A stretch of 62,531 bases of DNA, the filler included. It is 14 parts of 14 records of this genome, joined end to end, with 100 filler letters (N's around TTAATTAATTAA, not from the genome) between each part and the next. Parts side by side here need not be neighbours in the genome. Positions count along the whole stretch, not along the records: positions 1 to 4,100 come from SRR7504441_72159; positions 4,201 to 10,387 come from SRR7504441_72210; positions 10,488 to 14,890 come from SRR7504441_73822; positions 14,991 to 18,615 come from SRR7504441_73858; positions 18,716 to 21,843 come from SRR7504441_73862; positions 21,944 to 25,455 come from SRR7504441_74562; positions 25,556 to 29,900 come from SRR7504441_74600; positions 30,001 to 36,208 come from SRR7504441_74626; 6 more parts are not named here. One strand, written 5' to 3'. Below, piece after piece: positions 1,901 through 56,200 of the stretch. Positions within the stretch are counted from its first letter, which is position 1. The number at the start of each line of letters is the position of its first letter. Position numbers and translations under genes: made by a program. The notes beneath the pieces are model-generated. The model did not search any database and had not been told where the DNA came from. It saw only the letters and a program-made list of their open reading frames with translations.

Positions 1901-3708
1901 ATGGCGAAGATAATGAAGCGCAAGTTCGGAGGGCTAGAGGCCCAGAAGTTTCAGTTCGACATTGTGGTCGGGTCGATGCACGGCGGCTCGTCTCTGGAGG
2001 GCCAGGTGGCCCGCGCTATCGTGCCGGCCGCTGAGTGCCTGACGGTGCAGGAGCTGAACGTTTGCTGGACGCGGGGCGCCAAGATTGCGTCGACAGCACA
2101 TGTGAGTGCTGGGACCGCCGGCTGGGGCTGCGCCTGCTTTCTAATAGCCGCATAGACTGCTGCGGGGCCGTGTCGATGGCCCGTGTGGATAGGCTGCCCA
2201 CGCACCGGCCGTCTGTAAAGTAGTGTCCACTGGCAGGTAGTCTGCGAGGCCGGTGGGTCCGCTTCTTGGAACGAGAGCCTGTCACTGATCTGTACCATGT
2301 ACCGGTACCTGCGGCCGCCAAGCCAGCGCGTGACAGCTTTGCCAGGTCGTCCAATGGTAAATACCAGGAGAAGAGCGCTAAGCTGGCGGTGCGCGAGAAG
2401 AAGAAGAAGAAGACTGTGGGCAAGGTCAGCCAGCCAAGCGGGTCGCGGCGCGAGATCCGAGTTGCAGGTTCATTTTGACTTGGCAGAGTATTGTGTGATG
2501 GACGGATCCAAGCAGGTGCCCCTGGACTGAGCCGCCGATGTAGTGTGGTGGGCACGTGGCTCACCCTGGCCAGGTCACCATGGCTCTTGAAGTCTCAACG
2601 GGCATCTTTAGCGACAACGAGGCCTCTGGTGAGCTGTTGACGGCGGGCGGCCACTGAGGCTCGCCTGTTGATAGGCACTCTCAGCATGACAATTGCGTGC
2701 CGTTTCATCCCGCCGGGCGACGGTGGAGACTACAGTGAGATGACAGCGATGGATGCCTCGGAGATGTCAAATGCGTCTGACCTGTGCGAGGAGGACGAAG
2801 CGGAGGACCCAGTTCCAGTGGACGCTCCAAAGGTGGGTACCGGCTCACATGCGAGGCCTGACGGTTGGGCTTAGGCCATGGACCCCAAGACATTGGCCGC
2901 AGTGAAGAACAGAAGCATCGGCTCTTCGCTGGCAGCGGAGCCGGCGGCCAGCTCCAGCCACTTGGTTGAGAAGAACAGGAGTCTGCAGCAAGAGGTGCGC
3001 GCGGCGGCTGGCAGGCCTGACTGGGTGGCCAGCTGGAGCAGCTCAAGAAGGACTACAAGAGGATTGCAGAGGATGCGCAGGATTCTGCGGCCGAGGTCAG
3101 TCGATTCAGACATTCCTGTGCTGATTGAGTGCCGTTTGCAGGTGAAGCGGCTGCAGAAGAACAACTACGAGCTCCAGGACACGCTGGCTCGCCAGCAAGG
3201 CAAGTGGCGGTGTCGGCGGCGTCTGATGAGCTTGCTGTGCAGGTGAGGGCGACAAGGCGCTGTGCGAGCGAATTGCCGTGCTGGAGAAGGAGCTGGAGGA
3301 GGACAGGGCGGTCAAATCTACAATGAAGAAGGAACTGTCTAGAACGAAAGAGGAGCTTGAGACGGTCAAGTCTGACTCCGAGAGTGCTGGGCCTGTGCCA
3401 GACGATGAGCAGACCGCCCAGCTGATCACGTCGTTGGTTGAGGCCAAGATTGCCTATGCGAATTCGGAGGAAGAAAAGGTGCCGACAGCCGAGCGCCGGG
3501 CGATCTGAATGGAGTGCAGGGGAACATGGGCCTGAAACTGGTCCAGCTGCGCCGGGCGCTGGCCAAGGAGCGCGAGCTCAACCAGCAAGTGTCTCAGCGG
3601 ATGACGCGGCTCGAGGTGAAGGCAGAGAAGCTCAAGGCGCACGGCGCCTCGACCACCCCCAGCTCCACGCCCACCTCCAAGGGTAACAATACCCCGAGCC
3701 TCGAGTGA
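1901..3708 (+). CDS. NT-type C2 domain (EEIG1/EHBP1-like) plus C-terminal coiled coil; about 10 short introns
   Basis: Spliced product reads KFQFDIVV..LNVCWTRGAKIAST..ASWNESLSLICTMYR..YQEKSAKLAVRE..TVGKVHFDLAEY, typical of NT-C2; GT/GC-AG introns restore the frame. Confidence 0.8.
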
Positions 3709-4100
3709 AAGAGCCGCGACCAGCCAACAGTGGAGGGTGATCCTGTGAACGGCCTTGGCACGCGGCACTCGAGGAGGGCATTGGTAGGGCATTGGACTGA
3801 TACGTAACTGATACGCTGATAGTACTCGACTAGTAGCGTGTGTACAGTAGGTGGTCCAAGTTAGCGTGTGCCGGCGTAGCTAGGGTTAGTTTCTCGACGT
3901 ATTGATTCGTATCTTTGAATAGACCTCAAAGACTTCCTCGTAACAGGAGCGAGCTTATACACTCGATGGTGCATCTTGAGCATTTCTATAATTTCTATAG
4001 ATGCATACTCGTATCTCCGCTTGCTTAGCCTCAAACAATGATTTCTCAGGACTATTGTACTCGTACATCATGTGCCAGGTGCAGTGCTCATGTGAACTCA

Positions 4101-4200
4101 NNNNNNNNNNNNNNNNNNNNNNNNNNNNNNNNNNNNNNNNNNNNTTAATTAATTAANNNNNNNNNNNNNNNNNNNNNNNNNNNNNNNNNNNNNNNNNNNN
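4101..4200. other. Artificial contig linker N44-TTAATTAATTAA-N44. Also at 10388-10487, 14891-14990, 18616-18715, 21844-21943, 25456-25555, 29901-30000, 36209-36308, 40319-40418, 44269-44368, 49153-49252, 53187-53286, 58185-58284
   Basis: Identical 100-nt spacer with stops in all six frames, present 13 times; genes are cut at these points. Confidence 0.99.
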
Positions 4201-7200
4201 ACTGCCAGACGGAATCCAAGCCCTCAGCTCACTTCTGGATCTGAGCGTGGCCATCACTTTTATAAGTGGCACGTTACCGCAACATTTAGAAGAACTAACA
4301 TCGATCAGAGGTATCAACGCAAGTGTCACTCGAATGAGCGGTGAGTGCTTGCCTCGAATCGTTCATTAACAGTTGACAATGGCAGGAACTCTCCCAAATC
4401 TGGCTAGATCGACCAGCCTGGTTGACTTTTTCATGAGAGATTGTCTATTATCAGGCACCATCTTCACAGCGTTCGGCAATGCACTGGAGAATCTTGAGCT
4501 CTCTCGCAACGCAAAGCTATCTGGCACGATAGCTTCATCCCTGGCGGAGAACATGAAGACCCTGCATTTGTCAACGACCAGCCTCAGTGGCTCTATTCCT
4601 CCTATATTGCCGACCCTGAAGGCCCTTGGAGTGTCAAGCAACTACGTGCTAGCAATTCTGTAAGCTTTCTATTGATCATCCTGCAGGTGAGCGGAACTGT
4701 CCCTGGGTTAGCAGCGCGGCGCTCTGGAGCCTGCTCTCTACAGTACCTGAACCTCGGGTGTTTTCAACTGACTTTGCATCTGATCTGAGCAATACCGCTG
4801 ACAGGAGTAATTATATGTCTGGCACTCTTCCCGCAAGTTGGGCAAATTGCCGGGACGTGATTTACATCAATGTGGTGTGGGCAGACTAATACTTAGCTTG
4901 TTGAGCTGGTGCGGGCAGCCTCGTAACTTCATCACTGGGACGGTTAACTCTTGTCTAGGCTATTCTAGCCCCCAGCGCTAGCATTAGCATTACCAAGAGA
5001 CTGTGATTGGTCATTTCCACCAGGTGCCTCAATCGTGGAATGCCCTCTCCTCTCTTCAGGGACTCGTTCTGACCCTTAATCGAATTGGCGGCCCTATTCC
5101 AACATTCAGCAATGCTCAGGTAGAGCAACCCATTGGGCATTGTGATCATGCTGATAACCATGCCTGGCCAGTTTGGATGGAACAATAGTTTAGACCTCAA
5201 TCGATATTGGGTCAATTATCAATATTTGGGGGTTGAAGAGAGCAACACACAACTGCTACCGTTGGTGCCTTGTGCCCTGATATACTGAAACTGTCTCAAT
5301 CGCGCCTTTAGACCTGGGTGCAGTTGCAGGCGGGTAATAATGGCTTATACGAATCCTGTTCCACCTTTTCAGCACTGCTTGGGTACGACACAACCGTGTC
5401 TAAGGCAGTCAAATATGACCCAATGGTAACAGTTCGTTGTGGTTGCCTGTTAGCATGTGTCCGGGCTGCAGGGCGTACAAACCTTTTATTTCTCGTATCC
5501 TGTCTACATAACCCTGCTCACAGCGGTGCATGCCTTCAAGGTACTAGTCTTCTCACCACCGTCAGGTCATTATCCTGGTCATCATATATACCATCGTATC
5601 TCTGGTTTATTTCATTTATCCTCAACACAAAGGCAAACTCCCTCCGCTGCGCTTTTGCAGGGCATTCTATTATACAACTCCGCTTTGTCTTGACTGGCAA
5701 GATCTTGGCTTCAAACGGCTGAGCGAGCTCTCTTGTGTTGATCGTCTGCTGCAGCATCAAGTACCAGCCCAAATTTTCTTCGCTATTCTCTGTACCATAC
5801 TCTTGCCTTTATTTTACTTAGCTGCCGAAGAGTTCTGCACTGCATGGTATTTGTTTGAAGGCGGATACCAGGGTGGGTGTGCCGGGCATTAGAGTGTAGC
5901 CTTCGCTGCTCCTTCTAGACCCTTGCTGGTGGTGTGGATGAGCAGTGTGTTGCAGGTAGGTGGACCTTTGGCAACGCAGCTATCCCCCTCATCACGCAGC
6001 TAGACGTCGACCAGGAGGTTGCACACACAGACTGTTTCGCCGGTGCAAGACTCGAATTGTCTGAACTGTTCGTATCTGGTCAGCTGTTCAATTTCACCAT
6101 GGCGGGTACAATTCTTGCTATAGCAGCAACTCTTTGGTTCGCAGTTTGTGCTGTGATTGTTATACGCATAGTTCAGGACCCCATGCTGCTTGAAATCGAA
6201 AGGGAGAGAGCGGTACGAATGCCCCTGTTCATCCGCACCACTCAACCTAAGCCCAGACTAAACAACCCCAACTGACGATATGTTGCTTCTCCAGCTCGCC
6301 AAACTTATTGCGCACGCGAGCAATTTGGAATTCCGCTCAGATGGGAGAGCTGTTGCCGGCGGATGCGGTCATCAGATTCATGAACTGTTGTTTTTCTGGA
6401 AGAGGAGCGCCAAAGAAGCTCGACCGCTTTCTAAGAGGCACTCTTATGCTAAGAAGTGTGTAAACCTCACTTTCCTGCTACTCATCATCGTCGGCACACT
6501 CCTTCCTGATTTCTTGTTTGTGCTTGGCTCCCAAGTCGAATACGTGATTCAATGCTTATGCACAATGCTGACCTTACCCGTGCCCCCCAGGTGCCAGACA
6601 CGCTCAATTCATGGTGGCAGTGGCTACTGACGCACGTATTTGGTGTGGCTATTACACGCTCCGTCCTAGTATCCATTCGCGACATTTTCGTGTATGGCTG
6701 GGCCAAAGCGATTCTTTCGAGAGTCACAAAAGATCCAGAGCGGCTCCGATACTGGATATGCTCGGCTCTAGTAACGATGGAGTTGGGATCCATTCTTGTT
6801 GTTATCTCATTTATGATCTATATCAACGCATCTTGCTTCCAGGGGTGAGATGCCCCCCGGCACCTTGATCACTACATTGTGCACAGATATCTCTTGTTTT
6901 CACCAACGATGGAAAAAGAACTGGGAACGGACGGCGGGGACCCAGACGAATTTCGCGCATACTTTTGCTCGCGTTCGATTATGGTATCCTATCAGTTTGC
7001 TTGGGCCTATACGCTGCTGTTTGACGCTTTCCTTATGCCGTGGACTTACACCGCCTTTGTTGCTCGGTTTACGGACGACATACTCAGTTTTATAACTCGT
7101 ACGGGCGGAAACACCGGTTCGAGGAACGAACCAAGCAGCTCTGACACTAAGTGCACGTGGTTCTCATGCCTAGGCTGCAAGAAGACTGAAGAGCGAAATG

Positions 7201-8573
7201 ATGACCTCGATTCAGACATTCTCGAGCGCAAGGAAAGCAACTTGCGCCTCAAGCTTGCACGCATGCAAGAATGTCTAGCTCACGCCAACACCGACACCAT
7301 GTCATGTCCGTCCATAAGGGCTGAAAACATAGAACTTGCCCACAGAGGAGTGAACGAGCTTGAAACGGAGATTCGAGATGTGAAGCAGCGCATCCGCGAA
7401 AGGAATCATGGACGCGCAGATCGTGACTTCGATAAGTACCTTCAGAAAGCGAAGGAATTGGAAGAGCTCAGTACCATGGAAATGGTAAATGCGGCATGCT
7501 AGTGTTTCGCTTGCTTCGTAATTGCAGCTGAGTGGAACCGTAGGTGGTGGTCCACAAGATATTGATCTATTCAATGCTCATGGGGTTCTTTATGCCATTC
7601 ATCGGTCTGATTGTACCGAATTGGTCTGACGGCGTTCAGGTCTGACGGCGTTTGTTTGCATGGCAATACTACTGGTGCAGCGCAAGCATTGCTACGGCTA
7701 TGTATTACAACTTCTTCATCAAGCCCAGGAATCCTTTGATCAGCCAGATCAGCAGTACGATATCACGCTCCTAAGCTACATCAAACCCTGTCGTTGGGCT
7801 ATAAAGGCAACTCTCCTTATTTTATACTTTGCCTTGGTTGTTGTCTGGATCGACATGAGGGTGAGTGCCATTCTCAGACTGCTGCTGTGTGATCATGTTT
7901 ACTGGTACAGATCCCGAGCCTTCTGATCGTCATCGCAGCCCCACCTGTCATAGTAGCTGTGTTCCTAATTCTCCAACGCTTTCTACTGTCGAGAATAGCG
8001 CCTCAGAATTTGAAGTTGAGGAGATCAAGTACTGAAGAGCACCTGAGTTATAGAAGATCTCAGGATCATGCCAATGCCTCCGACGTGCTGACGCTCATCG
8101 AGCAGAGGGCTCAGGAGCTGTGGCAGAGGAACCAGGCATCCGAAGCGGATGATGAGCGTGCTGCAGATCCAGCCTTGGACACGTCCGATCGCGAGCAACA
8201 GTCTAGCATGGACGTGCGCACTTCATTCGTTTCCCGCGTCTTCGACCTAGTAGTCGTGCCTCGCATGCGCAAAGAAGCGGCGGAACTGAGAGAAGAACCG
8301 ATTGGCTGTGATGTGTGCAATCGAGGCTACAGCAGCCCTGAAACAGTCGTCGAAGGAGTACCTGGGGAAGAAGAAGACCATTCAGTCGTGAATGTATCGG
8401 CACCGATGGCAGTCATGGCACATGCCGCAGAGAAAGAGCCTCGAGGATTAGATCGCTTCACGACGACTGATCCTACGGTTGGTAGCTATAGCGATGTAAG
8501 TGAAGACCCCTCAGATCCGTTTGCTATGGAGACGAGCATTGCGAGCACTAGGGCGACACGACGGCGATTTTAA
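4201..8573 (+). CDS. Plant-type LRR ectodomain followed by a multi-pass membrane region; 5'-partial, multi-exon
   Basis: Repeats of the LxxLxLxxNxLSGxIP type (LENLELSRNAKLSGTI, LQYLNLGSNYMSGTLP, LQGLVLTLNRIGGPIP), then many hydrophobic exons and an acidic tail. Exon joins at 5500-6600 are approximate. Confidence 0.7.
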
Positions 8574-8729
8574 ATAACAATCATAATTATGATTGTCAAT
8601 CGATTTTGTGTGCGTTTAGATATCATAATTATTACGAGTGGATCTACTCGTGTTTGCCCTTTGAAATGAACGGTTATGCTGATCCAAGTACCACGGCTGT
8701 TCCAACGATTCACCCTACTATTGTCTAAG

Positions 8730-9673
8730 TTATGTCTGACTATTGTCCTTTTGGAACGCTCCGAAATCATCGGGCTTTGCTAGAGCTTTGCAATGTTCGA
8801 TTGATACTCCGGCAGGAAGATCTCGAGAACAAAGTTCGATTGCGGCGTCCCCCAAAGCATGGTGCACGTGCCTCGACCTTGCATGACACAGGCAGCGGCA
8901 AGCGTATCGAAACCAGGTCCTCCATGCCTCAAATCCCATGAACATCTGCTCTTGAACTAATTGGGCCAAACTCTTTTCGAGCTCAACTTGCTCTGTTGGG
9001 CTGACCGCCACCCCGCCTGGCAAAAATCTCGACCAAGCCCAGGCGGACAGCTTCTGGAGCTGCTCTAGGTTGAGCACTCCCACGCTGCCGCCCCACATGA
9101 TCAGCGCCTAGTCACCGGGCCGTGTGGCCACCTGCTTCCCGCCAATTGTTGGAACTTGAGCCTGGCTTTGGCCTCCAGTCGCTCGACCGCCGAGAGCAGC
9201 CGGCCGGGCTGGTGCACAACCTCGGCCGGACTGGCCCGCTCGGGCGGCTGGAGCATGTCTATCTCGCGCTCTCTGATCAGTCGCACGGCTCGACTGCCAG
9301 TCAGCTGCTCCGCCAGCTCTGCCTCTACCCGCGACTCGATTGCTGCGGAGAGCCGCGCTCGCAGAGCGTCGGCAGAGGCTGCACCCCCGGCTGAGCCCCA
9401 GAGGGCGGCTGCTCGACGACCTTGGTGCTGGCGGGCCATCTGGGGCTCGGACCTCGGGGCGGCCCGCAGCTTGCCCAGCAGCTGGCGCACCCGCTGGATT
9501 GTCCTCACCCGCCCCCCGTGATCCCCGCTGCGGAGCACTGCAGGCAGGCCTCAGCACCGGCCAGGCGGTGCCGGACCGAGCTCCAGTCCTCGACCAGCTG
9601 CATCCGGGGCGTCCGGGAAGAGCCGTGCCAGCAGCTGCGGGGTGCACTGCTCCTGGTCCTGGCCGCCATGCAT
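8730..9673 (-). CDS. Hypothetical protein, spliced
   Basis: ATG at 9673 (MHGGQDQ..); GT-AG introns link the ORFs 9101-9538 and 8730-9098. Confidence 0.5.
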
Positions 9674-9780
9674 GTCTGACACCAGATGCATCAACGGTTT
9701 TATGATATTTTACGATATGATTTGATGCATGGAATCGCACTTATCGCAGTGATGCTAGCTCGGGGACAGCAGTAGCGGGG

Positions 9781-10387
9781 ATGGAGCGGCTGAGCCTGGA
9801 CACCCGGGAGCGGATCAAGGCTAGCCTGCTCCGGGTCCAGCTCGATGGGCAGGTCAGTGAGGCGGCCAAGGGCACTATCCGGGCCGCGCTTGAGCAGGGG
9901 CTGGCGGAGGCCCTGGCCGAGCTCTCCCAGCAGGGCAGCTCACGCGAGCAGAGCGACGCCCGATCGTACGCGCTGGCGCAGGAGCTGGAGACCTTGGCCA
10001 AGCAGCTGCGCAAGGCCCAGAAGGCGCTGGGCGGGTGCGAGCAGCGGCTGGCGGAGCAGCTCGAGCTCACCGCTTCCCAGCGGGCCGAGCTGGAGATGCA
10101 ATCGGGGAACACTGGAGAGCTGCAGGCGCAGACAGCGGCGCTGGAGCGGTGCAGGGCCGAGCTGGAGGCCTGCCAGCGGGAGCGGGACGATACGGCCCAG
10201 CAGAAGAGAGCGCTGGAGCAGCGGTTGGAGGAGGCGGCCAGGGATCAGCCCGAGCTGGGGGAGGTACGGCGGCGGCTGGAGGAGTGCGAGCAGGAGCGGG
10301 ATGCGCTCAAGCTGCAGTGCTGGACCCATGCGCAGGGCAGGGACGGGCCCGAGAAGGCGCTCAAGCGGTGCCAGGCAGAGCTGGCCG
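9781..10387 (+). CDS. Coiled-coil protein, 3'-partial
   Basis: Open frame to the contig end with repeated LExCxxE heptads. Confidence 0.7.
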
Positions 10388-10487
10388 NNNNNNNNNNNNN
10401 NNNNNNNNNNNNNNNNNNNNNNNNNNNNNNNTTAATTAATTAANNNNNNNNNNNNNNNNNNNNNNNNNNNNNNNNNNNNNNNNNNNN

Positions 10488-14990: not shown

Positions 14991-17403
14991 CCAGCAGTTC
15001 CTGGAGAACTACCAGACCCCCGCGGGTGGCTACAAGTACATGCAGCAGCTGGTGCCCCCCCCCCCGCCTCGGCGGCGTCCTGACACGGTCCGGGCACAGC
15101 AACAGGTAGCTAACCGCGAGAGGAAGCGAGTGGATGTCCTTCTCTCCGACGTTGCCGAGGTGGCCCGCCCGGGGGATCGGCCGCCGACCTGGCCGCAGTT
15201 CTTCAACGATCAAGAAATCGCGGATAAAGTGATTCGGAACACAGTGAGATATCGGACGCTCGTCAAGCAGGCGATCGACGCGGTCATGCCCTCGTCCACC
15301 CATGAGCTGGACCACGATGACGTCACCGACATCCTCTACGCCCAGCGCATCGCCCAGCTAGAGGAACAACGGGAGAATCAAGGCGGCGAAGCGGTGCCAG
15401 CATCCGCCCGGGCCGGGGCCTGACTGGCCGGTCAACAGGACGCGTCGGAGCCGGTGGAGCATTCGCTGCCGGACGATTTGCGCCGTCGATAGTGAGTCGG
15501 CCCTCGTGAGGTCTAGGCTAATGCCCTGGGTTTGCAGTGAGGTCAACTTCGACCTGCCGGATGACGTCAAGCCCACCCCGATCCGGCTGGTGCGCGCCGA
15601 GCACGTGGGCTCGCTGGTACGCGTCAAAGGTCGGCCGCTTGTCGCTCGTGGCATCTCTGAGCCCGGGGCAGGGGTAGTGACCCGCGCTTCAAATGTGAAG
15701 CCAACTGTCACGACCGCCACTTACACCTGCGACAAATGCGGCTGTGAGGCTTACCAGGCACGGCTGCCCTGCCGGGCCGGCGGCGAGCCGGGCCTCAGGA
15801 AATCAAATCACGTTCATTCATGCCGCTGTTTGAATGTCCGAGCAGCGAGTGCAAGCAGAACAACGCGAAGGGCCGGCTCATGATGCAGACCCGCGGGTCC
15901 AAATTCGAAAAGTTCCAGGAGCTGCGGCTGCAGGAGACCTCGGAGGAGGTCCCTGTCGGCCACACCCCCCGGCAGCTGTCAGTTCAACTGTCTGGAGAGA
16001 ACACTCGCCAGTGCTCGCCAGGAGATCAGGTGACCATCACTGGCATATTCCTGCCGGTGCCGGAGTCCGGGTTCCGGCGGATGAAGATGGGCCTGACTGC
16101 CGAGACCTACCTCGAGGGCCAGGCTGTAACTCAGCTCAAGGCATCTGCGAGCGAGGACGAGAGCTGTGCAGAATTGCAGAGGCAGGTGCGGGAATGTGAC
16201 AAGGCAGATATGTACCGCAAGCTGTCCCAGTCGATCGCGCCGGAGATCTTCGGGCATGCGGACATCAAATCGGCGCTGCTGCTGGTGCTGGTGGGCGGGG
16301 TGACTAGGGAGATGGCAGACGGCATGAAGATCAGGGGAGACTTGAATGCGTGCTTGATGGGAGACCCCGGCGTGGCCAAGTCGCAGTTGCTCAAGCACAT
16401 CGCCACAGTGGCGCCACGGGGGATCTACACCACGGGCAAAGGTTCTTCAGGGGTCGGTCTGACGGCGGCTGTGATGAGGGACCAGTCAACCAATGAGATG
16501 GTTTTGGAGGGCGGGGCGCTGGTGCTTGCCGACACTGGGATTTGCTGCATCGACGAGTTCGATAAGATGGACGACGCCGATCGGACGGCCATCCACGAGG
16601 TGATGGAACAGCAGACTATATCCATTGCCAAGGCTGGGATCACGACCACGCTCAACGCACGCACATCGATCGTAGCAGCTGCCAACCCTCTGCAGGGCCG
16701 GTACAACATCAAGCGGTCGCCAGAGGAAAACATCAACTTGCCCACCGCGCTGCTCTCTCGGTTTGACCTGCTCTTCCTGTTGCTGGACTTGCCCGACCCC
16801 GAGAGAGACGCCAACCTGGCCAACCACGTGCTTTTCGTGCACCAGCACTGCAGGCACCCTGACCTCGGGTTTGTGCCGTTCGATCCAAAGTTCATGCGGT
16901 CCTACATAGAGGAGTGCCAGAAGATCACGCCGTACGTGCCGGACGAGGAGATGGATTTCTTGGTCGAACAGTACGTCTCAATGAGGAACAATGAGGACGA
17001 CAGCACCTCAAAGTACACTCACCCGTCGGCGCGTACGCTGCTGTCGATTCTACGCCAGTCACAGGCACTGGCTAGGATCCGGTTCAGTGACAAGGTGGAG
17101 CATCAGGATGTGCAGGAGGCAATCCGATTGATGCAGGCCTCACATGCCTCAGTCGAGCAGGAGATGGCCAGGACAAGCCGCCGGTACAGGGATCCAAAGA
17201 CTGACATCTACGAGATGATTGTATCACTAGCTCGACGCAACCCTAACATGTGTTGCAAGAGGCAGCATGTGTTGACCCAGGTGCTGGCCAAGTCCTTCAA
17301 AGAGGAGGATTTGGATGACTGCATCAGTGACTATGCAGCTTTGAACGTGCTCATGTATACACCTGAGGATGGATTGATTCGGCTGACGCTGAATAGCGAC
17401 TGA
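14991..17403 (+). CDS. MCM7: DNA replication licensing factor MCM7; 5'-partial, six short introns in the 5' part
   Basis: MGDPGVAKSQLLK, IYTTGKGSSGVGLTAAV, CIDEFDKM, AIHEVMEQQTISIAKAGITTTLNAR, LLSRFDL; MCM7-type TRGSKFEKFQE and VPVGHTPR. Confidence 0.95.
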
Positions 17404-25047: not shown

Positions 25048-25555
25048 GATACTACAACCATGTAATTAAGGAGCGTCTCTTATTATGAACAATTAATTGG
25101 ATATATTTAATTGGTCACATTGGCCGGGACTCACCTCTCACTGGTCACCTCTAAAAAGCCATAAAGTTTACAATCATACGACCGGTGACGCGGACAAGGT
25201 GCGAGCCGACGCGCAAGCGCTCACCATCAAGACCCCGACGAAGACGCAGCACTCGACTACGTTGACGACATTGCGACGACTAAGTAACACCCCCGGCAGG
25301 CACGAGCATTTCTTTCTTCGACCGGTGCGGATGCGCCCTTCCCCCGAGAAGCCGGGGCGGGTGCATGTGGCTCGAGGGGCGGTCCTGCCAGGTACCTGCG
25401 AGGCATGGCCGCATGGCAACCCCCGTCAACAGCCCCCTAGCCTCCCCTCCACCGCNNNNNNNNNNNNNNNNNNNNNNNNNNNNNNNNNNNNNNNNNNNNT
25501 TAATTAATTAANNNNNNNNNNNNNNNNNNNNNNNNNNNNNNNNNNNNNNNNNNNN

Positions 25556-36550: not shown

Positions 36551-36637
36551 GAGCTTTCGACCGGCCGGTCGGCCGGGTGCCGTTGTTGGGCCGCGGGAAG
36601 TCCCAGCTCACTGAGCTGCAGTGTCTGCGAGGGTCGG

Positions 36638-36680
36638 CGAGGCCAAGGTGGGAGCTCCGAGGCCAAGGTGGGAGCTCCGA
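36638..36680 (+). repeat. Perfect 20-bp tandem duplication CGAGGCCAAGGTGGGAGCTC between two divergent ATGs
   Basis: Read directly. Confidence 0.9.
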
Positions 36681-36693
36681 GTGGCTACACGCC

Positions 36694-44268: not shown

Positions 44269-44553
44269 NNNNNNNNNNNNNNNNNNNNNNNNNNNNNNNN
44301 NNNNNNNNNNNNTTAATTAATTAANNNNNNNNNNNNNNNNNNNNNNNNNNNNNNNNNNNNNNNNNNNNTTAATAAACCTATAAGGTTTCTAGCTACCATC
44401 ATTCCTCATCTAGTCGATACTTATAAATCAATCCTCATCGTCTGCACTGGGCACGTGGGTAGAACTGAATACGACGCCATCGTCTGCACAAGTTTTACGG
44501 TCCCTTGACCTTCGTCGTTCGGTGCCGGACAGTCCGAGTGAGGCCCAGCTCTG

Positions 44554-46768
44554 ATGCGATCGCGCAGCCGTGACCGCAGCCCAGCGAGGCGACGCAGTCG
44601 AAGCCGGGATCGGCGGGTACGGAGCAGGTCGAGGCGAGATAGGTCGAGGGGCAGACGGCGATCCCGGAGCGGCAGCCGGCGCCGCAGCCGGAGCAGGGAC
44701 AGGCGGCGGAGCAGGGGGCGCTCGAGCAGCAGGCGCCGGGACAGTAGAAGGCGACAGCCGAGCAGGAGCGCACGGCGAGGCAGCAGTAGAGACAGCAGTA
44801 GCAGCAGTAGCAGCAGCGACAGCGCCGAGCGGTCGAACCAAGCCGCAGAGCCGGTGGAGGAGCCGGCAGCTGAGCAAGAGGGGTCTGAGATCTCCGGAGA
44901 GGCGGTGCAGGCGACTGGGTTGCTCAGGCGAGCTCCGAGGCTGTCTGGCGGGCTGAGCCTGTGTGCAGCTCGCCTGCGGTCGACCGGCAGCGCGAGGTTT
45001 ACAACCAGAGCTGCAGCAACCTCAAACAGATGGACGTGACCGGAGTGGATCAGACGGCGCTGGTGGTGGCCGATAAGGTGGCCGGCCGGTATGGCGGCAG
45101 TGTGAGCGAGGCACGCAGGTGAACGCATTCCTGCAGTGCTTTGAAGAGGACGTGGCCGCTTTGGACCTCAACAGTGGCAAGCCCGTGCTCAAGGACAAGA
45201 AAGCGTTCGCTAGCCGGTGAGCAAGCCCGGTCTGGCGCCTATTGGACTTGGTGCAGATATCGCACTGTGTTCACTGAGTCCGGGCCTAAGCTCACTGCCA
45301 TCCTCACCAAGCGGGTCCGAGTGCACTCCAGCTGCCGGCTCAGCCTGCGCAGGTGACCTTTCGGCCCAAGGCGCGCAAGAACGCCCAACCGGTGTTCACG
45401 ATCGACTTTGAAACACACAGCCAGATTGTGTCCCCTGTGGGTGGGCTGCTTGATGGCTCAACAGGGCTGTCACCGCCCCGCAAACAGGTGAGCTGCAGCC
45501 TGGCATGCCGAGTCAGCTCTGGCCCCAGGCGTTGATTGTGCTCTACCTGACGCTGGTCAATAAAGTGGAGCGGATGTGGCTGGCGCCCGACAAGGCCCAG
45601 CTCGGGCTGTCGGATCTGAGCAGCTTTGAGCAGCTGCAAGCCAATCCTCAGATCAAAATGATGTGCGACAAGGTGCTCGACGCGTTTGGCAGCCTGGATG
45701 CCCTCGCTGTGGATGTGTGTGACATGCGGCTTTGCACCGCCGGTGGCGATTCCATCACTGGCCGGCGACCAACCCAGGAGGATGCTACGTGCTTGTGTCG
45801 CTGGCAGGGCAGTGAGATAGTTGATCCGGCCAGCCCGGCGCTGTTGGACCAAAATAACTTCATTGCGGTGTACGACGGGCACGGTGGCGACCAGGCGGCC
45901 AAGTTTGCGAGCGAACGGCTGCAGCACAAGCTGCTCGAGTGAGCTGGTGCCCTGCTCTGGACTGAGTGGGTGCGGGCAGAGGGCTTGCGGCCGGGCATGC
46001 GGCTCCGGATGCGCTCCACCAGGCATTTGTGCAGACAAGCGAAGAGTTTATTACTAGCACGGAGGATATGAGCGGTGCCCTACCCGCTGGCTCTGGTCGA
46101 GCTAGGTGCAGGCACCTGTGCGATAGTGGTGCTGGTGTGCGGTAGTATGCTGCATGTGGCGAATGCGGGCGACTGCCGGGCCGTCCTGTGCACTGGCGAA
46201 GAGGCCACTGCACACCGGCTCACTTCCGACCACAAGCCCGACCGGCCTGACGAAAAAGAGCGGATTGAAGCCGCCGGTGTGCAACAGGGCTTGCCGGTGT
46301 GTCTGAGTGGAAGGTTGCAGGTGGCTCAGTCCAGTTCTTCAAGTGCTGGCGGGTGACAGCGCCGCAGCACGGGATGATGCTCGCCACATCGCGCTCGCTG
46401 GGTGATTGCCGGTTCAAGGTGCCCCAGGCTGCCATTAGTAGGCTCAGACTGCTGGCTCGCAGATTGTGGAGAGCCGCACACCCCACCACATCGTGAGTGC
46501 CGAGCCGGAGCTGATGTCCCGCGAGTTGACCCGTGAGGACAAGTTTGTGATCTTGGCGTGCGATGGTGTGTGGGACGTGCTCTCAGACCAGCAGGCTTGC
46601 ACTGTGGTGAATGAGCACATACAGGCCAACCCGGCTCACACACCGCAGTCAGCTGCTAGCGCGCTGGTGAATGCGGCATTCGAAGCGGGCTCGCCTGACA
46701 ACATTTCTGTGGCAATTGGGATTTTTCACGCGTGGGCCACAGGCAGGAATTATGTGGGAGTCCACTAA
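44554..46768 (+). CDS. PP2C/PPM protein phosphatase with an N-terminal RS-dipeptide-rich domain; about 9 introns
   Basis: RSRSRDRSP..; GRRPTQEDA, VYDGHGG, ANAGDCRAVL, TSDHKP, SRSLGD, LACDGVWD, SPDNIS. Confidence 0.88.
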
Positions 46769-47205: not shown

Positions 47206-48993
47206 TCAAAAGTTGAGCCCATTCATCGCCGTGCTCACAGTGTTGTACACGCCATCCCAGAGAGCGAACGCCTCGTCGATCTGCCGCGGGTCAGCCGCCG
47301 CTCGCAGCCCGGGCACACCTTCTTTTGCAGGAGCGGCTGCAGGTTGTGCACTGCATACACCGCCTGCCCTCCCCGTCGGCGCCAGCCCAGCCCCGACCGC
47401 ACCGGCAGCGTGTTGGCCTTCCCGCGCACCTGCTCGGTCTCCCGCCTGGCAGTCTGCAGCCCAGCTCAGCTTGGAGACCGTGGCGGGTTTGCCTGGATTG
47501 CACTCCGGATGGACTCTGTTGACTCCTTCCACGCGGCCACCTTGATCGTCATCTCCGCCAGCCGGTCGGCAAGCTCCTTAATCTAGCCCACAGGCTCGCC
47601 CCCAGCAGCCGGCGGCGCTCACCCTCAGCTCGGCAGCGCTGCCTGCGACGCTCATCTCCTCTACTTTGCTGTTGAGTTCGGCCACCAGAGTGGACAGCGT
47701 ACCGTTCTCATCTCGGAGCACCGCCGCCTCGGCCTCGTACTTGTGGGTCAGCTCGCCGATCGTGTCCTGCAGCTGCCGCACTTTGTCGTCGTGCTGTCCA
47801 AGCCTAAGCCCGCCCGGCTGACCAGCCGACCTTCCTCTCGGCCGCCTCAGTCGCCGCTTGATGCTCGCTCTTGAGCTCCACTATCGTCTGCTCGAGCGCC
47901 GCCACCTGCTGCTCGGTCTTCTTGATCTTCCGATCAGCCTGGTCTATCTCCTCGTAAAGCCGCTGACTCTTCTCGGTGAGCTTGGTGACCTCTGCCCGAT
48001 GCTCCCTGTCGATCTGATCGAGCTCCTTGCTGTGCTCGGATCGGATCAGCTCGATGCACCCGTTGGCCTCGTCCACCGCCTGCTGCATGCTCGTCTTCAT
48101 CTCGTCGAATTGCGCCTCCGCCTCTGCCAGCTGCCCCGCCGTCAGCACCCACTCGGCAGCCTGCCCGCACCGCAGTCGCCTGCCCCAGCTTCAGTGCGCT
48201 CATCTGCTCCTCAAACTCCTCCTTCACCCGCGCGGCCTCCGCCCGGGCCTCCGCCAGCTCCGCCTTCAGGCCCTCTACCTGCCGCCCTGCTCGCTCGGCC
48301 CGACCCCGCCCACACCTCCTTGTTGAGCCGCGCAGCCTCTGCAGCCGCCTCGCTCCTGACCTCGGCCAGCTCGGCCTGCAGCCCCTCCAGCTCCGCATCC
48401 TTGCCCTCCACTGCCGCCGCGCCCGCCGCCACAGCCTCGGCCAGCTCGACCTTCAGCCCGGCGATCTCCTTGTCTCGAGCCTCGATGGTCGCCTCCTTCG
48501 CCGCCAGCCGCGCCTCCAGCTCAGCCTGCCCGTCGGCTCGACCGGGGCGCCGGCCGGACGGGCACCTTGTTGGCGGCCCACTCGGCGCGCTCGGCTGCGA
48601 TCTGGGCCGTCTGCTCCTGCTGGGCCACGGCCGCCGCCTCGGCTTGCTCGAGGGCGGCCTTCTTCACGGCCTTGGTGTCCTCCTCGGCCCCCATCAACTG
48701 CTGCTTGGTCGAATCGCGCTGCTGCCGGAGCACGCGCCCGTCCATCAGGCTCTCGTACAGCTCGCCGCGCAGCGAGGTCTCCAGGTGCCACCCAAACTCT
48801 GCCCCGCCCTCGCACCAGCCGCCCCCAGTCACCCACCGCCGTTCCCAGGGCGCAGGTCCGAAGCGTGCGACAGCTCGTGCTGCAGAGCCGTCAGCGCACC
48901 GCTGGGGGGGCGGGACACCTTGTTCTCGAAGCTCTGGCGCACCATCCCGGAGCCCGGGCGCGCCGAGTTGAGCACCGCGCTGCTGTACGGCAT
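47206..48993 (-). CDS. Multi-exon coiled-coil protein
   Basis: ATG at 48993; Glu/Ala/Lys heptad exons joined by introns of about 40 nt; stop at 47206. Confidence 0.65.
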
Positions 48994-50808: not shown

Positions 50809-51040
50809 TACATGTCTAGTTTAGGTGTCATCTACCGTGGCTCTAGGTGCACAGCGACATGTAATTGATACTCATGAATGCACAATGCTGTCATGATCTT
50901 GAGCGACCAGCGTGCACTAGTACAATAATGTTACGAGCATGTGCGAGCACAGGTATACGATAACGATGCGTCGATGCTGCGGTGCGAGCTTCGGAGTGCC
51001 GTTAAACTGGCCGCACCGAGCACCGAGCGGCGGTCGGACG

Positions 51041-52370
51041 ATGGAGCAGCAATGGCCGGCGTCGTCGTACCGGCTGAGTTCGATCGAGGCGGGGCTGGGC
51101 TGGCTGGAGCGGACCGCCCGGCCTCTGGCCTCGGTCGAGTGCGTGGGGACCGGGCTCAAGGGCGACGACAAGTGGCTCGGGGGCGAGCTCGGGCCGGACG
51201 GGGCTGTGTACGGGATCCCTGGCACCGCCAAGACCGTGCTCCGGTGCCCGACCGACGGCCCGCCCAGCCAGCTAAGGTTCGACCACTCCCGCCCGATCAG
51301 CTCGCTCAAGCGCGGCGCGTTCAAGTGGCTGCGCGGCATCCTGGCCGCCGACCGGTGCGTGTATGGCATCCCGAGCAACGCAGACTTCGTGCTTCAAATC
51401 CGGCCGGACGAGCAGGCCGTGGCGCTGCTGGGCGAGCGGATGCCCGGCAGCTGGAAGTGGCACGGCGGTGTGCTGGCCGCCAACGGAGCGATCTACGGGA
51501 TTCCTGCCAACGCGCGGCGGGTGCTCAAGCTGGACCCTGCGAGCGGCTCGATCGAGATGGTGGGGCCGGAGTGGCCCGGGAGCAACAAGTGGTACGGCGG
51601 GCTGCTCGGGCGGGATGGCAAGATCTACGGGATTCCGTACAACGCCGACGCCGTGCTGGTGATAGATCCAGCAGACGACAGTGTGAGCACCATCGGCCAG
51701 CTAGCCGCCGGTGGGTTCAAGTGGCACGGCGGGGCGATCTCCAGCGACGGTATCATCGTCGGGATCCCGTCACACGCCGACGCCGTGCTCAAGGTCGTGC
51801 CAGAGACGGGAGAAGTTAGCCTGATCGGTGAGGGTGCGATCCCCGGCTCTTCCAACCCCCGGCGGCCGCACACTAAGTATAAGTACGGGGGGGGCGCGGC
51901 CACGGAGGACGGGCTGGTGTACGCCTTCCCCAGCGACAGTGATCGGGTGCTCAAGGTGGCGCCGGCGGCCAACAAGGTGCACTGTGCCAGCCGCCCGGGC
52001 TGAGATGGAGGGGTGCAGGTGTCGCCGATCGGGCCTGTGTTCGACTCGCACAGCAACAAGTGGCAGAACGGGTTCCGTTGCCGGGACGGAGCCATCTACG
52101 CCATCCCGGTCCGCACACGGCCGGAGGCTGCGGCTGAGTGTGAGGCGCAGTGTGATGCGGAGCGCGTGCTGAGGATTGATCCGGCAACCGACCAGGTACC
52201 GGCACCCGGCGGGCGGGGCGGAGCGAGGGCAGGTGAGCCTGGTGGGGCCGCGGTTCGAGGGCCGGGAGAAGTGGGAGGGCGGGGTGCTCGCTGGGGACGG
52301 GGTAGTGTACTGCATGCCGCAGCAGGCGCAGACGCTGCTCAAGATCATACCAGGCCCCAGCCGCGAGTAG
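51041..52370 (+). CDS. Beta-propeller-type repeat protein (KWxGGxxxxDGxIYGIP repeats); three introns
   Basis: Eight repeats of about 45 aa, KW.GG.L..DG.IYGIP..A..VL.IDP. Confidence 0.85.
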
Positions 52371-52554
52371 CGCCTAGTCATCATACGGGGCTGGTGCCGC
52401 CAAATAGCTGACTGCAATCATGATTGCTTTAAACAATCTATAAACAATCGGTGACGAGTCTTCATATAATTATATTAAGCTCCGAGGGGCTACCGAGGGG
52501 TCGCCTCATAGCCAGAACACAAGATTCATTTCAATTCATTCCACACACCACACA

Positions 52555-53186
52555 CTAGGCCGGTCTGCCACCCGCGCCCTCCTCCTGCGCCCTCCGCCGG
52601 CGCCAGCTCGCCTGCTCGGCCGCCGCCTCCTCCTCCAATGCTTGCACCCGGCGCACCGCCGCCCCGTACCGCGCGGTGACCCGTCGCACCGCTGCCGCCG
52701 CCAGCTCGGCCGTCGGGTCTACCAACGGACTGGCCGCCTGCCCCGCCTCAGCCCTGCGCGGAGCGGCGGCCACACCCGGGCGGTCACGGGTGGCGGCAGG
52801 GCCGGCCGGGGCCGCACAGCGGGCGGTGGCGGGCGGCGGGGCGGGACGGGCGGCCTGGCGGTGGGAGGGGGCGGCGGAGTGGGCGGCTTGCACGGCCGGA
52901 GCCTGGCGTTGTAGATCCAATGGCCCTCCGGCCCCACCACTCCGCTGCTCATTCAGTGTCGCAAGGAAGCCTTCCAAACATCCGTTGTACAGGACCGTTG
53001 GAGTTGTTAATCTCCGCGATCGCACACTGCCCCGCCGTCACTCGCTCGGGCAGGCGACATCTGTCGCTCTGGCAGGGGACACCGCAGATGTCAACATACA
53101 TGTTCTGTGCCTGGACGGCATGGTCCGCGGGGACGAGGAGGGGGCGGTCCCAGGACCGGCCGCGGAGGCGCCGGCAGAGGGGCTCG
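52555..53186 (-). CDS. 3' part of a hypothetical protein
   Basis: ORF 52555-53025 with a Pro/Ala-rich linker and short coiled coil; AT-rich DNA downstream. Confidence 0.35.
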
Positions 53187-53286
53187 NNNNNNNNNNNNNN
53201 NNNNNNNNNNNNNNNNNNNNNNNNNNNNNNTTAATTAATTAANNNNNNNNNNNNNNNNNNNNNNNNNNNNNNNNNNNNNNNNNNNN

Positions 53287-56200
53287 CCTGCTCCACCCAA
53301 CTTTCATCAGCCTCCGAGTCCCCAACATACAAGCACGCGATAGCGAAGCGCCTCCGACCATAGCATGTTGCCATGAACTCAGAATAGTCACTCAGGGTGA
53401 GACTGATCGCCGCATTTCCAGCAGTTGCTTCTGGGAATCCGTGCTCAAGCGTCCGTTTGAGGTAGTTTGCCGACTTTACAGGCACCAACACGACAGCTGG
53501 AGCCAGACCCGCATCTTGGGTGGCCGCTTGCGATAAGCGATGGCCCAGAAAGCCATCTAACATACTCCGGCTGTGAGCCACCTCCATGATGCAGTGCTGG
53601 CCGTTCATCGCGCCCTTGGTGCGGGCACCGCTTAACTTTACAACTGTGTTGCTCTTGAGCGCAAAGGGATCGCCGCTGGCGCAGCCATTGCACACGTCGT
53701 GCTCCAGACGTGCATTCAAACAGTGAAGAAGCTCGGAAATGATGGTCTCTCTGGCTGATGCGTTCTCTAGCATCAAGCAGTCCGGTGGTAGCGTGGAGCT
53801 CTGAAGACAGTGCGCCATTGTTACACTAAAGTTCTGACAGCAATTATCGCAACAGCGTCTTGATTCGTTCAAATGATCCCAAAAGCTCTGCTGATTAGCA
53901 CATGTAGTCACTACTGGACATTGGCAGACAGGGTGCGAGAAGGTACACGGCGTATCGCACGGAGTGCAAAACCGCATAAAATCATCCTTGTCGGCACATG
54001 CTATCTGGCCTAAATGCCCGCAAGGCCTCACAGCTTCTACCAGCTTTGTACACCTGAATGTATCCGCGTTCTGTCCGCATCTGAGCTTCTCAACGTGGCC
54101 ACATTTGAGATTGACATCAAATGAGTGCGTGCACTTGAAGTTGGACGGGTTCTCTGCTGAGCACGGTGCCTTGATCATATGTCCACAAGCTAGCACGACC
54201 TCGGTGGTCTGCGTACACTGGGCCCTCCCTGCTGTGAGGTCACTGCACTTGACTTTGGCAGCGTGCCCGCAGCACGGCGGGCAGAATTCGACCATGGCTG
54301 TGCACACAGGGGTTTCTCCTTCTTTCAGTTTCGAGCAGTCATTATATGACACATGCCCACATGGCAGCTCAGCTTTGACCGCAGAGGAACAAGGCGGTGC
54401 CGTTTGATCTGGGCTGTTGACTTCGCAACATACACCAAACCACAAATGCCCCCTCGTGCAAGTTGGATGGGGCACACTGGTCCGAGCTTGGCAAACAGAG
54501 GGCGGGCTGCTAGATTGATGGCAAGCTACTTTGATCATCTGAGATGGGGTAGGATGTCCAAATAGGCACGGTGGTGCGGGCACGGTCACTGGTGTGGTAC
54601 ATAGAGGAGCCTCGTTGCTACACTTGATCTGTACAAAATGGCCACAATTTGGATACTGCAGTGTGAAGTCCTGGGTACAGGGTGGACAGGCTTCGCCTGA
54701 ATGGCACTTGGCTTGGCAAATATGCTTTTTTCGAGCACACCATCGACCGCAAGTGGCTGTACAAGGCCGCAGCGGAAGCACAGTCGATATCTCGAGAGCA
54801 GCCTCTTGCACAGTCGGCTGATGGTTCTTGATGATCGCTTTCTTGAACTGCTCACATGCGAGCTGACAAGAAACTGGCGTGGGGTGGCCGCAGCCTGGTC
54901 GAGCTACATAAACACGCGAGACGCAAGGCAGAAGTGGGACCTGCTCCACAACCAGGTCTGTTTGCGTGAGATCAACGTTCTTGAATGCGCCATCTTTTAC
55001 CCCCAAGCTGCGCACTGCCCGGCATTCCACAATTGCACGATGCGAGCATTGTGACCTTTTGACGGAGACCGGTGTGCAGCACTCGGGAAGCGGGACAGAT
55101 TCTAAGGCCGGCGTATCCTGTGGCACTTGGTCGTCAACGTCTGCATACCTCAGTGATTTTGCCACGTGACACTCGACGATCGTCTGATGGCCGCATCCCG
55201 CTCGAAGTATGCTGACATGATGCTTGCACTGCGCGCTGGCCACCTCAGTCCCGCATCGTACCTTCACAATATGAGAGCAGTATGGATGAATTCGATCGAC
55301 AATCTCCACGCATTCGGCTTCATCGGGGTTGACATGGCAGGGATATAGACCCGAGTGCCCACACGGCAGCCGCTTCTCAACCATTTCCATGCACAGTCCA
55401 TGGTCGTGGCAGCTAGCCTGGCATCCCTGGTGCAGTTTGCAAGTAACACGGCAGGGCTCGCCGCAGTGGAACTCGAGCCTTTGATTGATAGAGTAGTCCC
55501 GACCACCCTTACCGCCCTTACCCTTGCCGTTTCGTCCATTCCTACCCTGTGCCTTGAACAGATCCGTAGCGTACGATTTCAGCGAGCAGTGGATCCGGCT
55601 GTTTTCTGGATGGCGCGGGCAGACCAGTGTCCCAAGGGACGCTGGAGCATGACTGGCCATTGCCATGCAAGCCTCAGTCTCACGATGGGACGTGCTGACA
55701 ATCTCCATCCGTCGGATGACCTTCTGCCAATCCGGGAGCTGCCACAGGAGTGCAGGATTGCCAAATATTGCAAACGCGCACCGAGCCTGCATCCCAAGCA
55801 GAGCGTGAGCCAGGCCAAAGCGGCCGGTCAGCGGAGGCACCCGGGAAACTGCCACACACAGTCGGTTCTGCGTGCGAAGAAATCGAGTCAGCTGCTTTCC
55901 TCGGGTGAGCGAGAGCAAGATCAAGTCATTTTCTTCGCCTGTGGTCACAACACTTGACTCAGCTCAATAGCCCACGAGAGGGGGTTGCCTTGGAACATAT
56001 CCACGGTTTGGCAATCCAGCAATTTGTTGTCTTTGTCTCTCAGATTCATCGCCCTAATCATGGCTCGAAGAATGTGCAGCTGACCTAAATGACAGCATCT
56101 CATCAAAGTGCTGAGCGATTATATCAGCTCACCTTTGTATGGTGTAATAATTGTGATCTTGGCTGGGTCGAGTCCAACCTGCTTAACTTGAAAGTGTGCA

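Follow-up and report, generated by a model that had tools for sequence, protein, structure and literature searches.

Two short tandem duplications at acceptor junctions in a marine microbial eukaryote with very short introns

Our analyses have identified two introns in which a short head-to-tail duplication coincides with the acceptor junction. They lie in a window (the whole stretch of DNA that was analysed, 62,531 nucleotides with filler included) joined from 14 short contigs; these come from a marine microbial eukaryote rich in introns, in which intron lengths cluster near 42 nt and the branch motif CTGAC sits 10-17 nt 5' of the AG. These cases are probably ordinary microduplications that have persisted at two acceptor junctions, with the extra copy spliced out, the other repeat pairs listed in the first-pass annotation being at chance level. 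As found, they represent two tidy examples of an ordinary class of mutation surviving where splicing hides the copy. The features concerned are the following.

7605-7639, plus strand: intron of 35 nt, the favoured model (splice-signal and codon scores)
7621-7652, plus strand: head-to-tail duplication of 16 nt, units 7621-7636 and 7637-7652, 14/16 identical (unit alignment)
28200-28246, plus strand: intron of 47 nt (gapless homologue alignment, reading frames, signal score 7.88)
28232-28255, plus strand: head-to-tail duplication of 12 nt, units 28232-28243 and 28244-28255, 11/12 identical (unit alignment)

The intron at 28200-28246 lies where an NRPS-like gene encodes its C-terminal hexapeptide repeats, and both it and the intron at 28306-28348 are confirmed by the spliced C-terminus, which aligns without gaps with six of six homologues (P0001-P0006). 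Its final 12 nt and the junction G repeat the start of the downstream exon, its acceptor AG occupies 28245-28246, and CCAG/GT (the slash marking the splice site) is found at both of its junctions. The single mismatch between the two units falls on the A of the would-be upstream AG, 28233-28234 reading CG. The tandem statistic of this duplication (-lnP 12.2) is the second highest among 69 introns, and in the homologue alignment it is the start of the exon that is conserved, the intron existing independently of the 12-nt copy.

The intron at 7605-7639 interrupts a gene for a membrane-like protein without a known family; the region of the open reading frame at 7630-7923 gave no match in Pfam, and a search for longer homologues of this frame found none. 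The last 16 nt of the intron correspond to the upstream unit of the duplication, within which lies its sole good branch motif (CTGAC, 10 nt from the 3' end), and its acceptor AG is at 7638-7639. The two mismatches between the units are the CA of a would-be upstream CAG, 7622-7623 reading TG, and the tandem statistic (-lnP 14.1) is the highest among the 69 introns. The donor junction reads TCG/GT and the acceptor junction CAG/GT, and the intron starts with the same 6 nt as the downstream exon, an in-register run of 7 if the preceding G is counted. The stretch 7605-7680 comprises two adjoining GT...AG units, 35 and 41 nt long, and removing either alone restores the same downstream frame. On the predicted splice model, the intron at 7605-7639 is favoured over the rival at 7640-7680 by both the splice-signal score (6.65 vs 3.23) and the codon score (2.3 vs -0.1); under either model one 16-nt copy is exonic and the other intronic. 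No reads of three RNA runs mapped to the contig concerned (4201-10387).

These two loci were examined as part of a claim, made in the first-pass annotation, that ten repeat pairs in unrelated genes mark a tendency of short introns to copy their neighbouring exons. A direct sequence check located all ten of the claimed pairs, with the identities given for them:

7623-36 and 7639-52: identity 14/14
28234-43 and 28246-55: identity 10/10
28331-42 and 28350-61: identity 10/12
2559-70 and 2573-84: identity 10/12
52137-47 and 52149-59: identity 10/11
15506-13 and 15537-44: identity 8/8
45065-72 and 45077-84: identity 8/8
46273-81 and 46293-301: identity 9/9
22649-57 and 22672-80: identity 9/9
4873-84 and 4907-18: identity 11/12

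Only the pairs belonging to 7621-7652 and 28232-28255 are clearly above chance. The other six or seven (viz. the 8-9-mers, the 10/12 matches and all of the donor-side pairs) are at chance level among about 100 short GC-rich introns, and caution is called for in reading intron-exon matches of 8-9 nt or 10/12 in such a set, where they are expected by chance. The intron assignments behind the pairs at 28234, 28331, 52137, 4873 and 7623 are discussed at their loci; those behind the remaining pairs come from ab initio models or splice signals alone. The weaker pairs are distributed as follows.

52109-52150, plus strand: intron of 42 nt with a 12-nt tandem pair, 52137-52148 and 52149-52160, 10/12 identical (Tandem Repeats Finder, TRF, row 52137-52159)
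2516-2573, plus strand: intron of 58 nt; 2557-2570 and 2571-2584 match at 10/14 (-lnP 7.3, sixth of 69)
28306-28348, plus strand: homologue-confirmed intron of 43 nt; pair 28331-42 and 28350-61, 10/12, offset 19
15492-15537, plus strand: MCM7 intron with two copies of an 8-mer at an offset of 31, not beyond chance by decoy comparison
45065-45118, plus strand: 8-mer pair on the donor side of intron 45078-45118, at the level of decoys
46273-46320, plus strand: 9-mer pair on the donor side of intron 46277-46320, at the level of decoys
22649-22700, plus strand: donor-side 9-mer pair at intron 22656-22700, chance level; the intron is signal-defined and was missed by the gene finder
4873-4918, plus strand: 11/12 repeat; intron 4875-4918 of a leucine-rich-repeat gene, assigned by our own reading of its fit to the leucine-rich-repeat pattern

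The intron at 52109-52150 is backed by the internal repeat spacing of the encoded protein, and its tandem pair (52137-52160) is borderline, either an older duplication or chance. The pair at 2557-2584 is within the chance range, its -lnP of 7.3 falling short even of a threshold that about 2 decoys pass; both 52109-52150 and 2516-2573 may carry older junction duplications. The 28331/28350 pair (score 7.5) is likewise within the chance range, belonging to a class (score of at least 7) that has 9 observed members vs 4.3 expected, the reversed-exon control likewise giving 9. The two copies of the 4873/4907 pair are both essentially intronic, the 5' end of the intron matching its own 3' end with no exon copy. 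Alone, the match is not significant; by a rough hand estimate about 0.3 such matches are expected over all introns. This layout is that of a short direct repeat at both intron ends; an origin as inserted sequence with a target duplication on either side was rejected here, because by our own analysis the reading frame would not be regained once the insert is taken out.

The statistics are based on the intron set of an ab initio, self-trained gene finder in its first version, which contains errors and whose shortest predicted introns are 25 nt; a second self-trained version, in which the number of introns climbed from 185 to 239, was left out of them. Several predictions were discarded, viz. 136-177 and 304-354 (spurious, both within an open frame), 36621-36654 and 36668-36723 (falling in a 20-nt tandem array 5' of a coding region), 44744-44795 (spurious, in a CAG-type repeat) and 52109-52144, where the gene finder had taken another acceptor and which gave way to 52109-52150. 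The targeted tandem test used 69 frame-required introns with random positions as controls, the exact-repeat test covered donor and acceptor sides with position-shuffled decoys as the null, and the in-register test (period equal to intron length) used 118 introns.

At acceptors, two strong tandem events were found in 69 introns against 0.15 expected at random positions (P about 0.01). The pooled non-exon rate (5 of 1107 positions) predicts about 0.3 events at 69 acceptors (P about 0.04), and the rate in unannotated gene-internal stretches, 0.0136 per position, predicts about 0.9 at 69 junctions. Weaker thresholds give a roughly 2.5-fold excess at acceptors: 5 observed vs 1.9 expected among the 69 introns at a -lnP of at least 8, and the score class of at least 7 already given. 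Exact repeats of at least 8 nt number 8 on the acceptor side vs 3.37 in decoys, and those of at least 10 nt number 4 vs 0.55 expected, two of these four being in the spurious introns 136-177 and 44744-44795. On the donor side, exact repeats of at least 8 nt show no excess over position-shuffled decoys (3 observed vs 3.57, P=0.71), and none of at least 10 nt was observed where 0.70 were expected. The enrichment over a null that had been anticipated for both sides of the intron is seen for strong acceptor tandems and is missing at donors. It consists of two events (P about 0.01-0.04), and a real preference for acceptor junctions is possible because these two events exceed both the random-position and the pooled non-exon expectation. 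Strong events at donors were absent, though duplications there should be equally tolerated, and this observation counts against the explanation that we prefer.

Local repeats are abundant across the window as a whole. Counting direct repeats whose copies lie within 60 nt, we found 35 with a length of 10 nt or more, vs 6.7 +/- 2.6 in 20 third-order Markov simulations, and 17 with a length of 12 nt or more, vs 0.7 expected. TRF reports 64 rows, mainly two-copy arrays of period 7-21, in every sequence context, and equally strong short tandem repeats are found in exons, intergenic DNA and unannotated stretches; one example is a perfect 20-nt array of 2.2 copies 5' of the zinc-ribbon coding region of an SNF2 gene, which is at no supported intron. 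Where both copies of a repeat of at least 10 nt lie in predicted exons, the offset is divisible by 3 in 8 of 11 cases. In addition, one DNA contig (depth 2.7) from a related population shows a 6-nt gap at 8483, the site of an imperfect tandem pair of 6-nt units in the window. As adjacent head-to-tail copies within this large local-repeat population, 7621-7652 and 28232-28255 fit short tandem duplication.

The most probable explanation is built on this mutational background. Short tandem duplications arise throughout the genome, with replication slippage or short templated insertion as their probable source; within exons only in-frame duplications would survive, and at an acceptor junction a duplication would be tolerated because the extra copy remains intronic and is spliced out, the existing intron growing by 12-16 nt. 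The repeats themselves, the junction position of the 28234 pair, the excess of local repeats and the missing donor-side excess are shown by the data, whereas the mutational mechanism, the neutrality of these changes and the order of events are what we infer. The introns at 7605-7639 and 28200-28246 each carry a recent tandem copy of the first bases of the next exon and have therefore been lengthened by local duplication, so that the idea of local duplication extending introns is supported for these two and unsupported as a lineage-wide statement. In its simple form, extension fails for the intron at 7605-7639, because without the 16-nt copy 19 nt would remain, too short compared with the shortest predicted introns of 25 nt, and this too counts against the preferred explanation. 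In both strong cases the differences between copies solely remove the upstream AG and leave the original acceptor. This loss could reflect selection after duplication, and it could in part be ascertainment, because a used upstream AG would redefine the exon start.

A broader reading, in which junction duplication of exon sequence is the main route by which introns of this lineage are gained or go on growing, appears unlikely. The two strong and two weak acceptor tandem pairs among 69-118 introns, above random-position decoys, speak for it, as do the origin of 16 of the 35 nt of 7605-7639 in the exon-start copy, which also supplies the branch motif and the AG context, the opening run of this intron in register with the exon, and the lack of introner-like families. 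The claim of a window-wide, lineage-typical mechanism nevertheless reduces to an excess of two events among 69-118 introns, marginal against non-exon positions and absent at donors; comparable repeats lie away from any intron, and at 28200-28246 the intron is independent of the copy. Intron creation by local duplication, which had also been suggested, finds no support in the 118 introns, none of which repeats its flanking exon at a period equal to its length: mean identity at this period is 0.279 downstream and 0.270 upstream vs nulls of 0.267 and 0.266, and the maximum in-register identity (0.51) is below the 99.9th percentile of the null (0.53). The whole-intron signature is also absent in 37 stringent introns, and in-register junction runs in the 118 introns number 6 vs 2.39 at a length of at least 6, 2 vs 0.80 at 7 or more and 0 vs 0.22 at 8 or more. 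In two metagenome scans for relatives (queries 6909-7484 and 27458-28198), no related locus was found. The reported overlap of intronic copies with branch motifs is positional only, because the motif lies at its usual distance from the AG regardless. A narrower version, in which acceptor-junction duplications of 12-16 nt are a recurrent and preferred growth route of the approximately 42-nt introns, even giving exon sequence a branch-point or acceptor role, as at 7605-7639, is very doubtful; if true, it would mean a stepwise, duplication-driven building or rebuilding of very short introns, distinct from whole-segment AGGT duplication and introners. A true enrichment of junction microduplications would reveal, for a marine protist that has been little studied, the way in which minimal introns alter in length and perhaps originate.

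It is also improbable that two random microduplications simply fell on acceptors, without tolerance, selection or meaning: the high local-repeat background (35 repeats of 10 nt or more over some 61 kb) and the approximately 0.9 events expected at the gene-internal rate are in keeping with such a coincidence, whereas the exact register of both duplications with the AG, the restriction of mismatches to the upstream AG and the expectation of 0.15 at random positions argue against it. Stutter from metagenomic assembly could be suspected, as the assembly is of the metagenome type, with short contigs, and the patchy cover of contig 4201-10387 by a DNA run leaves out 7513-7719. The copies, however, differ at one or two bases, frame and splice context are consistent, and units of 12-16 nt are well within read length, which makes an artefact extremely unlikely. 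There is similarly only a slight chance that the duplications serve as functional tandem splice sites, with a choice of acceptors, or of introns (7605-7639 or 7640-7680), yielding regulated isoforms; removal of either the 35- or the 41-nt unit at 7605-7680 restores the same downstream frame, but neither strong case has the upstream AG, and in the second unit both the branch and the signal score (3.23) are weak.

Ordinary microduplication at acceptor junctions can be compared with several known systems. In NAGNAG and more widely spaced tandem 3' splice sites, duplication of the acceptor junction gives two candidate sites a few bases apart; unlike these, neither of our strong cases has a usable upstream AG, and a single acceptor is left. 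In the AGGT model, the whole intron is a duplicated exon segment with a period equal to intron length. Our cases resemble it in that a local copy places exon-derived sequence into an intron and in the CAG/GT junction of both, and they differ in that the unit makes up 12-16 nt of introns that are 35-47 nt long, without a whole-length signature, and that the intron at 28200-28246 exists without the copy. The first-pass description of such gain as having few documented natural cases is an understatement, 188 events of intron gain by tandem genomic duplication being tabulated in a 2012 review (PMC3443670), and cases are described from Xenopus and potato (PMC3265369, PMC4974935). Introner elements are families of near-identical introns, proposed as a source of introns in marine protists (PMC9860276). 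Unlike them, the 69 introns form no near-identical family; their dissimilarity, as first noticed, is upheld by 2346 pairs of intron interiors, none of which scores at least 12, and the 16 pairs scoring at least 10 (vs 5 in shuffled interiors) are consistent with shared motifs. The closest likeness is to slippage-type or short-templated-insertion microduplications, in the head-to-tail arrangement without spacer of near-identical 12-16-nt units, and what sets our two cases apart from ordinary members of this class is that both straddle a 3' splice junction, with one copy intronic and the other exonic.

Our analyses have located all ten of the repeat pairs from which the first-pass annotation described a window-wide pattern of exon copies in short introns, each at its reported position and with its reported identity, and the assignment of copies to intron and exon was right wherever it could be checked. 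One of the ten, at 4873/4907, joins both ends of a single intron rather than an intron to an exon. The window-wide pattern, however, shrinks to two clean microduplications, each spanning a 3' splice junction, in a window where short tandem repeats are plentiful everywhere, the other pairs being chance matches; one or two further, older junction duplications are doubtful. The two clean cases, and the gene that carries the second, are:

7621–7652 (+ strand), duplication at the 3' junction of the probable intron 7605–7639, in a gene for a membrane-like protein
28232–28255 (+ strand), duplication at the 3' junction of intron 28200–28246
25508–28440, NRPS-like gene with a PP-binding domain, a membrane-like middle and a hexapeptide-repeat C-terminus

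The window originates from an uncultured marine eukaryote, since words of its MCM7 contig turn up in metatranscriptomes and metagenomes of marine and seawater origin (best share 0.29). Its 14 contigs of 3–6 kb are separated by 100-base spacers (4101–4200 and 12 more), each a 12-base linker with stops in all frames, set between stretches of N; as these are joined contigs and not one locus, anything crossing a spacer is artificial. The genes recognised by Pfam are ordinary eukaryotic ones (viz. MCM7, glycoside hydrolase 3, SNF2 helicase, PP2C, the NRPS-like protein with its PP-binding domain and cysteine-rich surface proteins). Homologues of the NRPS-like gene carry AMP-binding, PP-binding and hexapeptide domains, and the source of one of them names it 'non-ribosomal peptide synthetase-like protein'. 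The contig region 4201–8000 has a G+C content of 0.47–0.49, clearly below the rest (mostly 0.53–0.68), and may be a compositionally distinct region or another organism's contig in the same bin; its introns share the length class and branch motif found elsewhere. The gene at 51900–52350 encodes repeats of ~45–50 residues with a recurring DG-x-[VI]-Y...P, four residues and an RVLK-like motif, and in successive repeats an intron falls at the same position or close to it; its Pfam matches are weak, and all lie under the curated cut-off except a match to one motif model, which is very short.

As the window is without annotation, gene models were obtained with our own dynamic-programming gene finder, which scores codon log-odds, splice-site matrices and intron length and took the window's own sequence for training. 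It predicted 21 genes with 170 introns, whose lengths peak sharply at 38–46 nt; CTGAC is the most enriched 5-mer near intron 3' ends (6.0-fold), and branch-like motifs are commonest 10–17 nt ahead of the AG. Very short introns occur across the window (e.g., 2995–3032, 48880–48918 and 45488–45528). Their donor is weak (GTG/GTC), their branch motif reads CTGAC or CTGAG and their acceptor CAG, and the interiors are rich in G, the 5-mers GGGCG, CGGGC and GGGTG being enriched 3.5–3.9-fold. Manual inspection revealed errors in the predicted set. Predictions 136–177 and 304–354 (both within an unbroken open frame), 36621–36654 and 36668–36723 (both in a tandem array of 20-nt units that precedes the SNF2 coding region) and 44744–44795 (a CAG-type repeat) were rejected, and acceptor 52144 of the intron starting at 52109 was replaced by 52150 on the internal repeat spacing of the protein. 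A second, more elaborate self-trained model was dropped for over-prediction (239 introns). Because the predictions include errors, tests were run on three nested sets, viz. all 118 introns of 30–70 nt, the 69 with a YAG end that the reading frame requires, and the 37 that additionally have a branch motif.

When each intron was matched against the exon flanks of other introns, exact acceptor-side matches of at least 10 nt numbered 5 against 0.13 expected among the 118 introns, and acceptor scores of at least 10 numbered 3 against 0.09 among the 69; the corresponding donor-side counts were 2 against 1.49 (at least 8 nt, 118 introns) and 0 against 0.32 (score at least 9, 69 introns). Random re-placement of introns within their own contigs, which keeps the real local-repeat background, gave 8 acceptor matches of at least 8 nt (3.37 expected, P = 0.033) and 4 of at least 10 nt (0.55 expected); for donors the numbers were 3 (3.57 expected) and 0 (0.70 expected). 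No donor-side excess was found under these two controls. Among the four longer acceptor matches, two fall in spurious introns, leaving those at 7623 and 28234. A tandem statistic fitted to the layout of the first-pass annotation (unit 8–24 nt, second copy beginning at the junction) reached –lnP of at least 12 in 2 of 69 introns, against 0.15 expected from random positions and 0.17 from non-acceptor CAG|G sites, and of at least 8 in 5 against 1.9; the 2559 pair (–lnP 7.3) ranks sixth of the 69. Broken down by annotation class, –lnP of at least 12 was reached by a fraction of 0.0048 of random positions in exons, by 0.0136 of those in unannotated stretches within genes and by none in either intergenic DNA or short introns, rates that yield ~0.3 to ~0.9 expected over 69 junctions. 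The acceptor side thus holds two real events, with P roughly 0.01–0.04 by choice of control; the 8–9-mer pairs are at decoy level, and the 10/12 pairs have scores at which there is little difference between observed and expected counts.

Short local repeats are typical of the entire window. Direct repeats that are exact over at least 10 nt and lie no more than 60 nt apart number 35, where simulation with a third-order Markov model gives 6.7 ± 2.6, and those of at least 12 nt number 17 against 0.7; TRF returned 64 rows, mainly two-copy arrays of period 7–21. They are found in exons, intergenic DNA and unannotated stretches, and where both copies lie in predicted exons (n = 11) the offset is divisible by 3 in 8. 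The longest perfect tandem repeat of the window (36638–36681, 20 nt × 2.2) lies upstream of the coding part for the SNF2 helicase zinc ribbon, and each unit holds a donor-like AAG|GTGGGA, which accounts for the two false introns there. A further array is exonic:

21998–22064, 21-nt unit × 2.6–3.2 in a predicted exon, an in-frame 7-residue repeat

In a single low-depth DNA contig from a related population (95–99% alike), 6 nt are missing at 8483–8488, the exonic site of an imperfect 6-nt tandem pair in the window, and 6 extra nt are present at 6939, both variants being in-frame; the 8483 variant is a weak hint that small tandem units may come and go.

Introns 28200–28246 and 28306–28348 of the NRPS-like gene are well placed, the spliced C-terminus aligning with six of six homologues with zero gaps over both junctions. 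At 7623, introns 7605–7639 and 7640–7680 restore the same downstream frame, and either leaves one intronic and one exonic copy; splice signals (6.65 vs. 3.23, where the training median is 7.7 and the 99th percentile of all GT..AG candidates is 7.73) and codon scores (2.3 vs. –0.1) favour 7605–7639 as the probable intron. No homologues of this gene were found with ORF 7630–7923, nor related loci in relatives in metagenome scans with queries 6909–7484 and 27458–28198.

With units rotated to begin at the last three intron bases, 7621–7636 matches 7637–7652 at 14/16 positions, both mismatches being the CA of the would-be upstream CAG, and 28232–28243 matches 28244–28255 at 11/12, the mismatch being the A of the would-be upstream AG. 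Both alignments fit an account in which the duplicated segment would have spanned the junction, taking in three bases of the intron and the first 9 or 13 of the exon, and the upstream acceptor would then have been lost, so that the original exon start would be retained and the intron lengthened. Loss of the upstream AG may reflect selection or, in part, ascertainment, and microhomology-mediated templated insertion may be an alternative to slippage as the source of the copies. For 28200–28246 the junction-duplication account is coherent: the alignment with homologues shows that conservation begins with the exon start in use now, and removal of the copy would leave 35 nt with a branch-like site ~8 nt from the AG. 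For 7605–7639 it is not fully coherent; only 19 nt would be left and the sole good branch motif lies in the intronic copy, so that, judged from sequence, this predicted intron must have been remodelled more deeply or its model must be wrong.

The two clean cases provide no evidence for the proposals that introns are created here by local duplication or that the mechanism is lineage-specific. The AGGT tandem-duplication model, as presented in PMC3443670, predicts an intron that repeats its flanking exon, the period of the repeat matching the length of the intron; no such repeat was seen in the 118 introns or the 37 stringent ones. In-register direct repeats at both intron ends, the signature of double-strand-break repair or target duplication, are in slight excess at 6–7 nt (6 vs. 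2.39), where they look like the common CAG|GT context, and none of at least 8 nt occurs among the 118 introns. Intron-versus-intron comparison of the 69 introns found no sequence families, which excludes introners and bears out the earlier remark that the introns do not resemble one another. Tandem duplication had been described as having few documented natural cases; however, the tabulation in PMC3443670 alone lists 188 events ascribed to tandem genomic duplication, from seven genera. The two clean cases show intron lengthening via junction duplication, an already-known kind of event.
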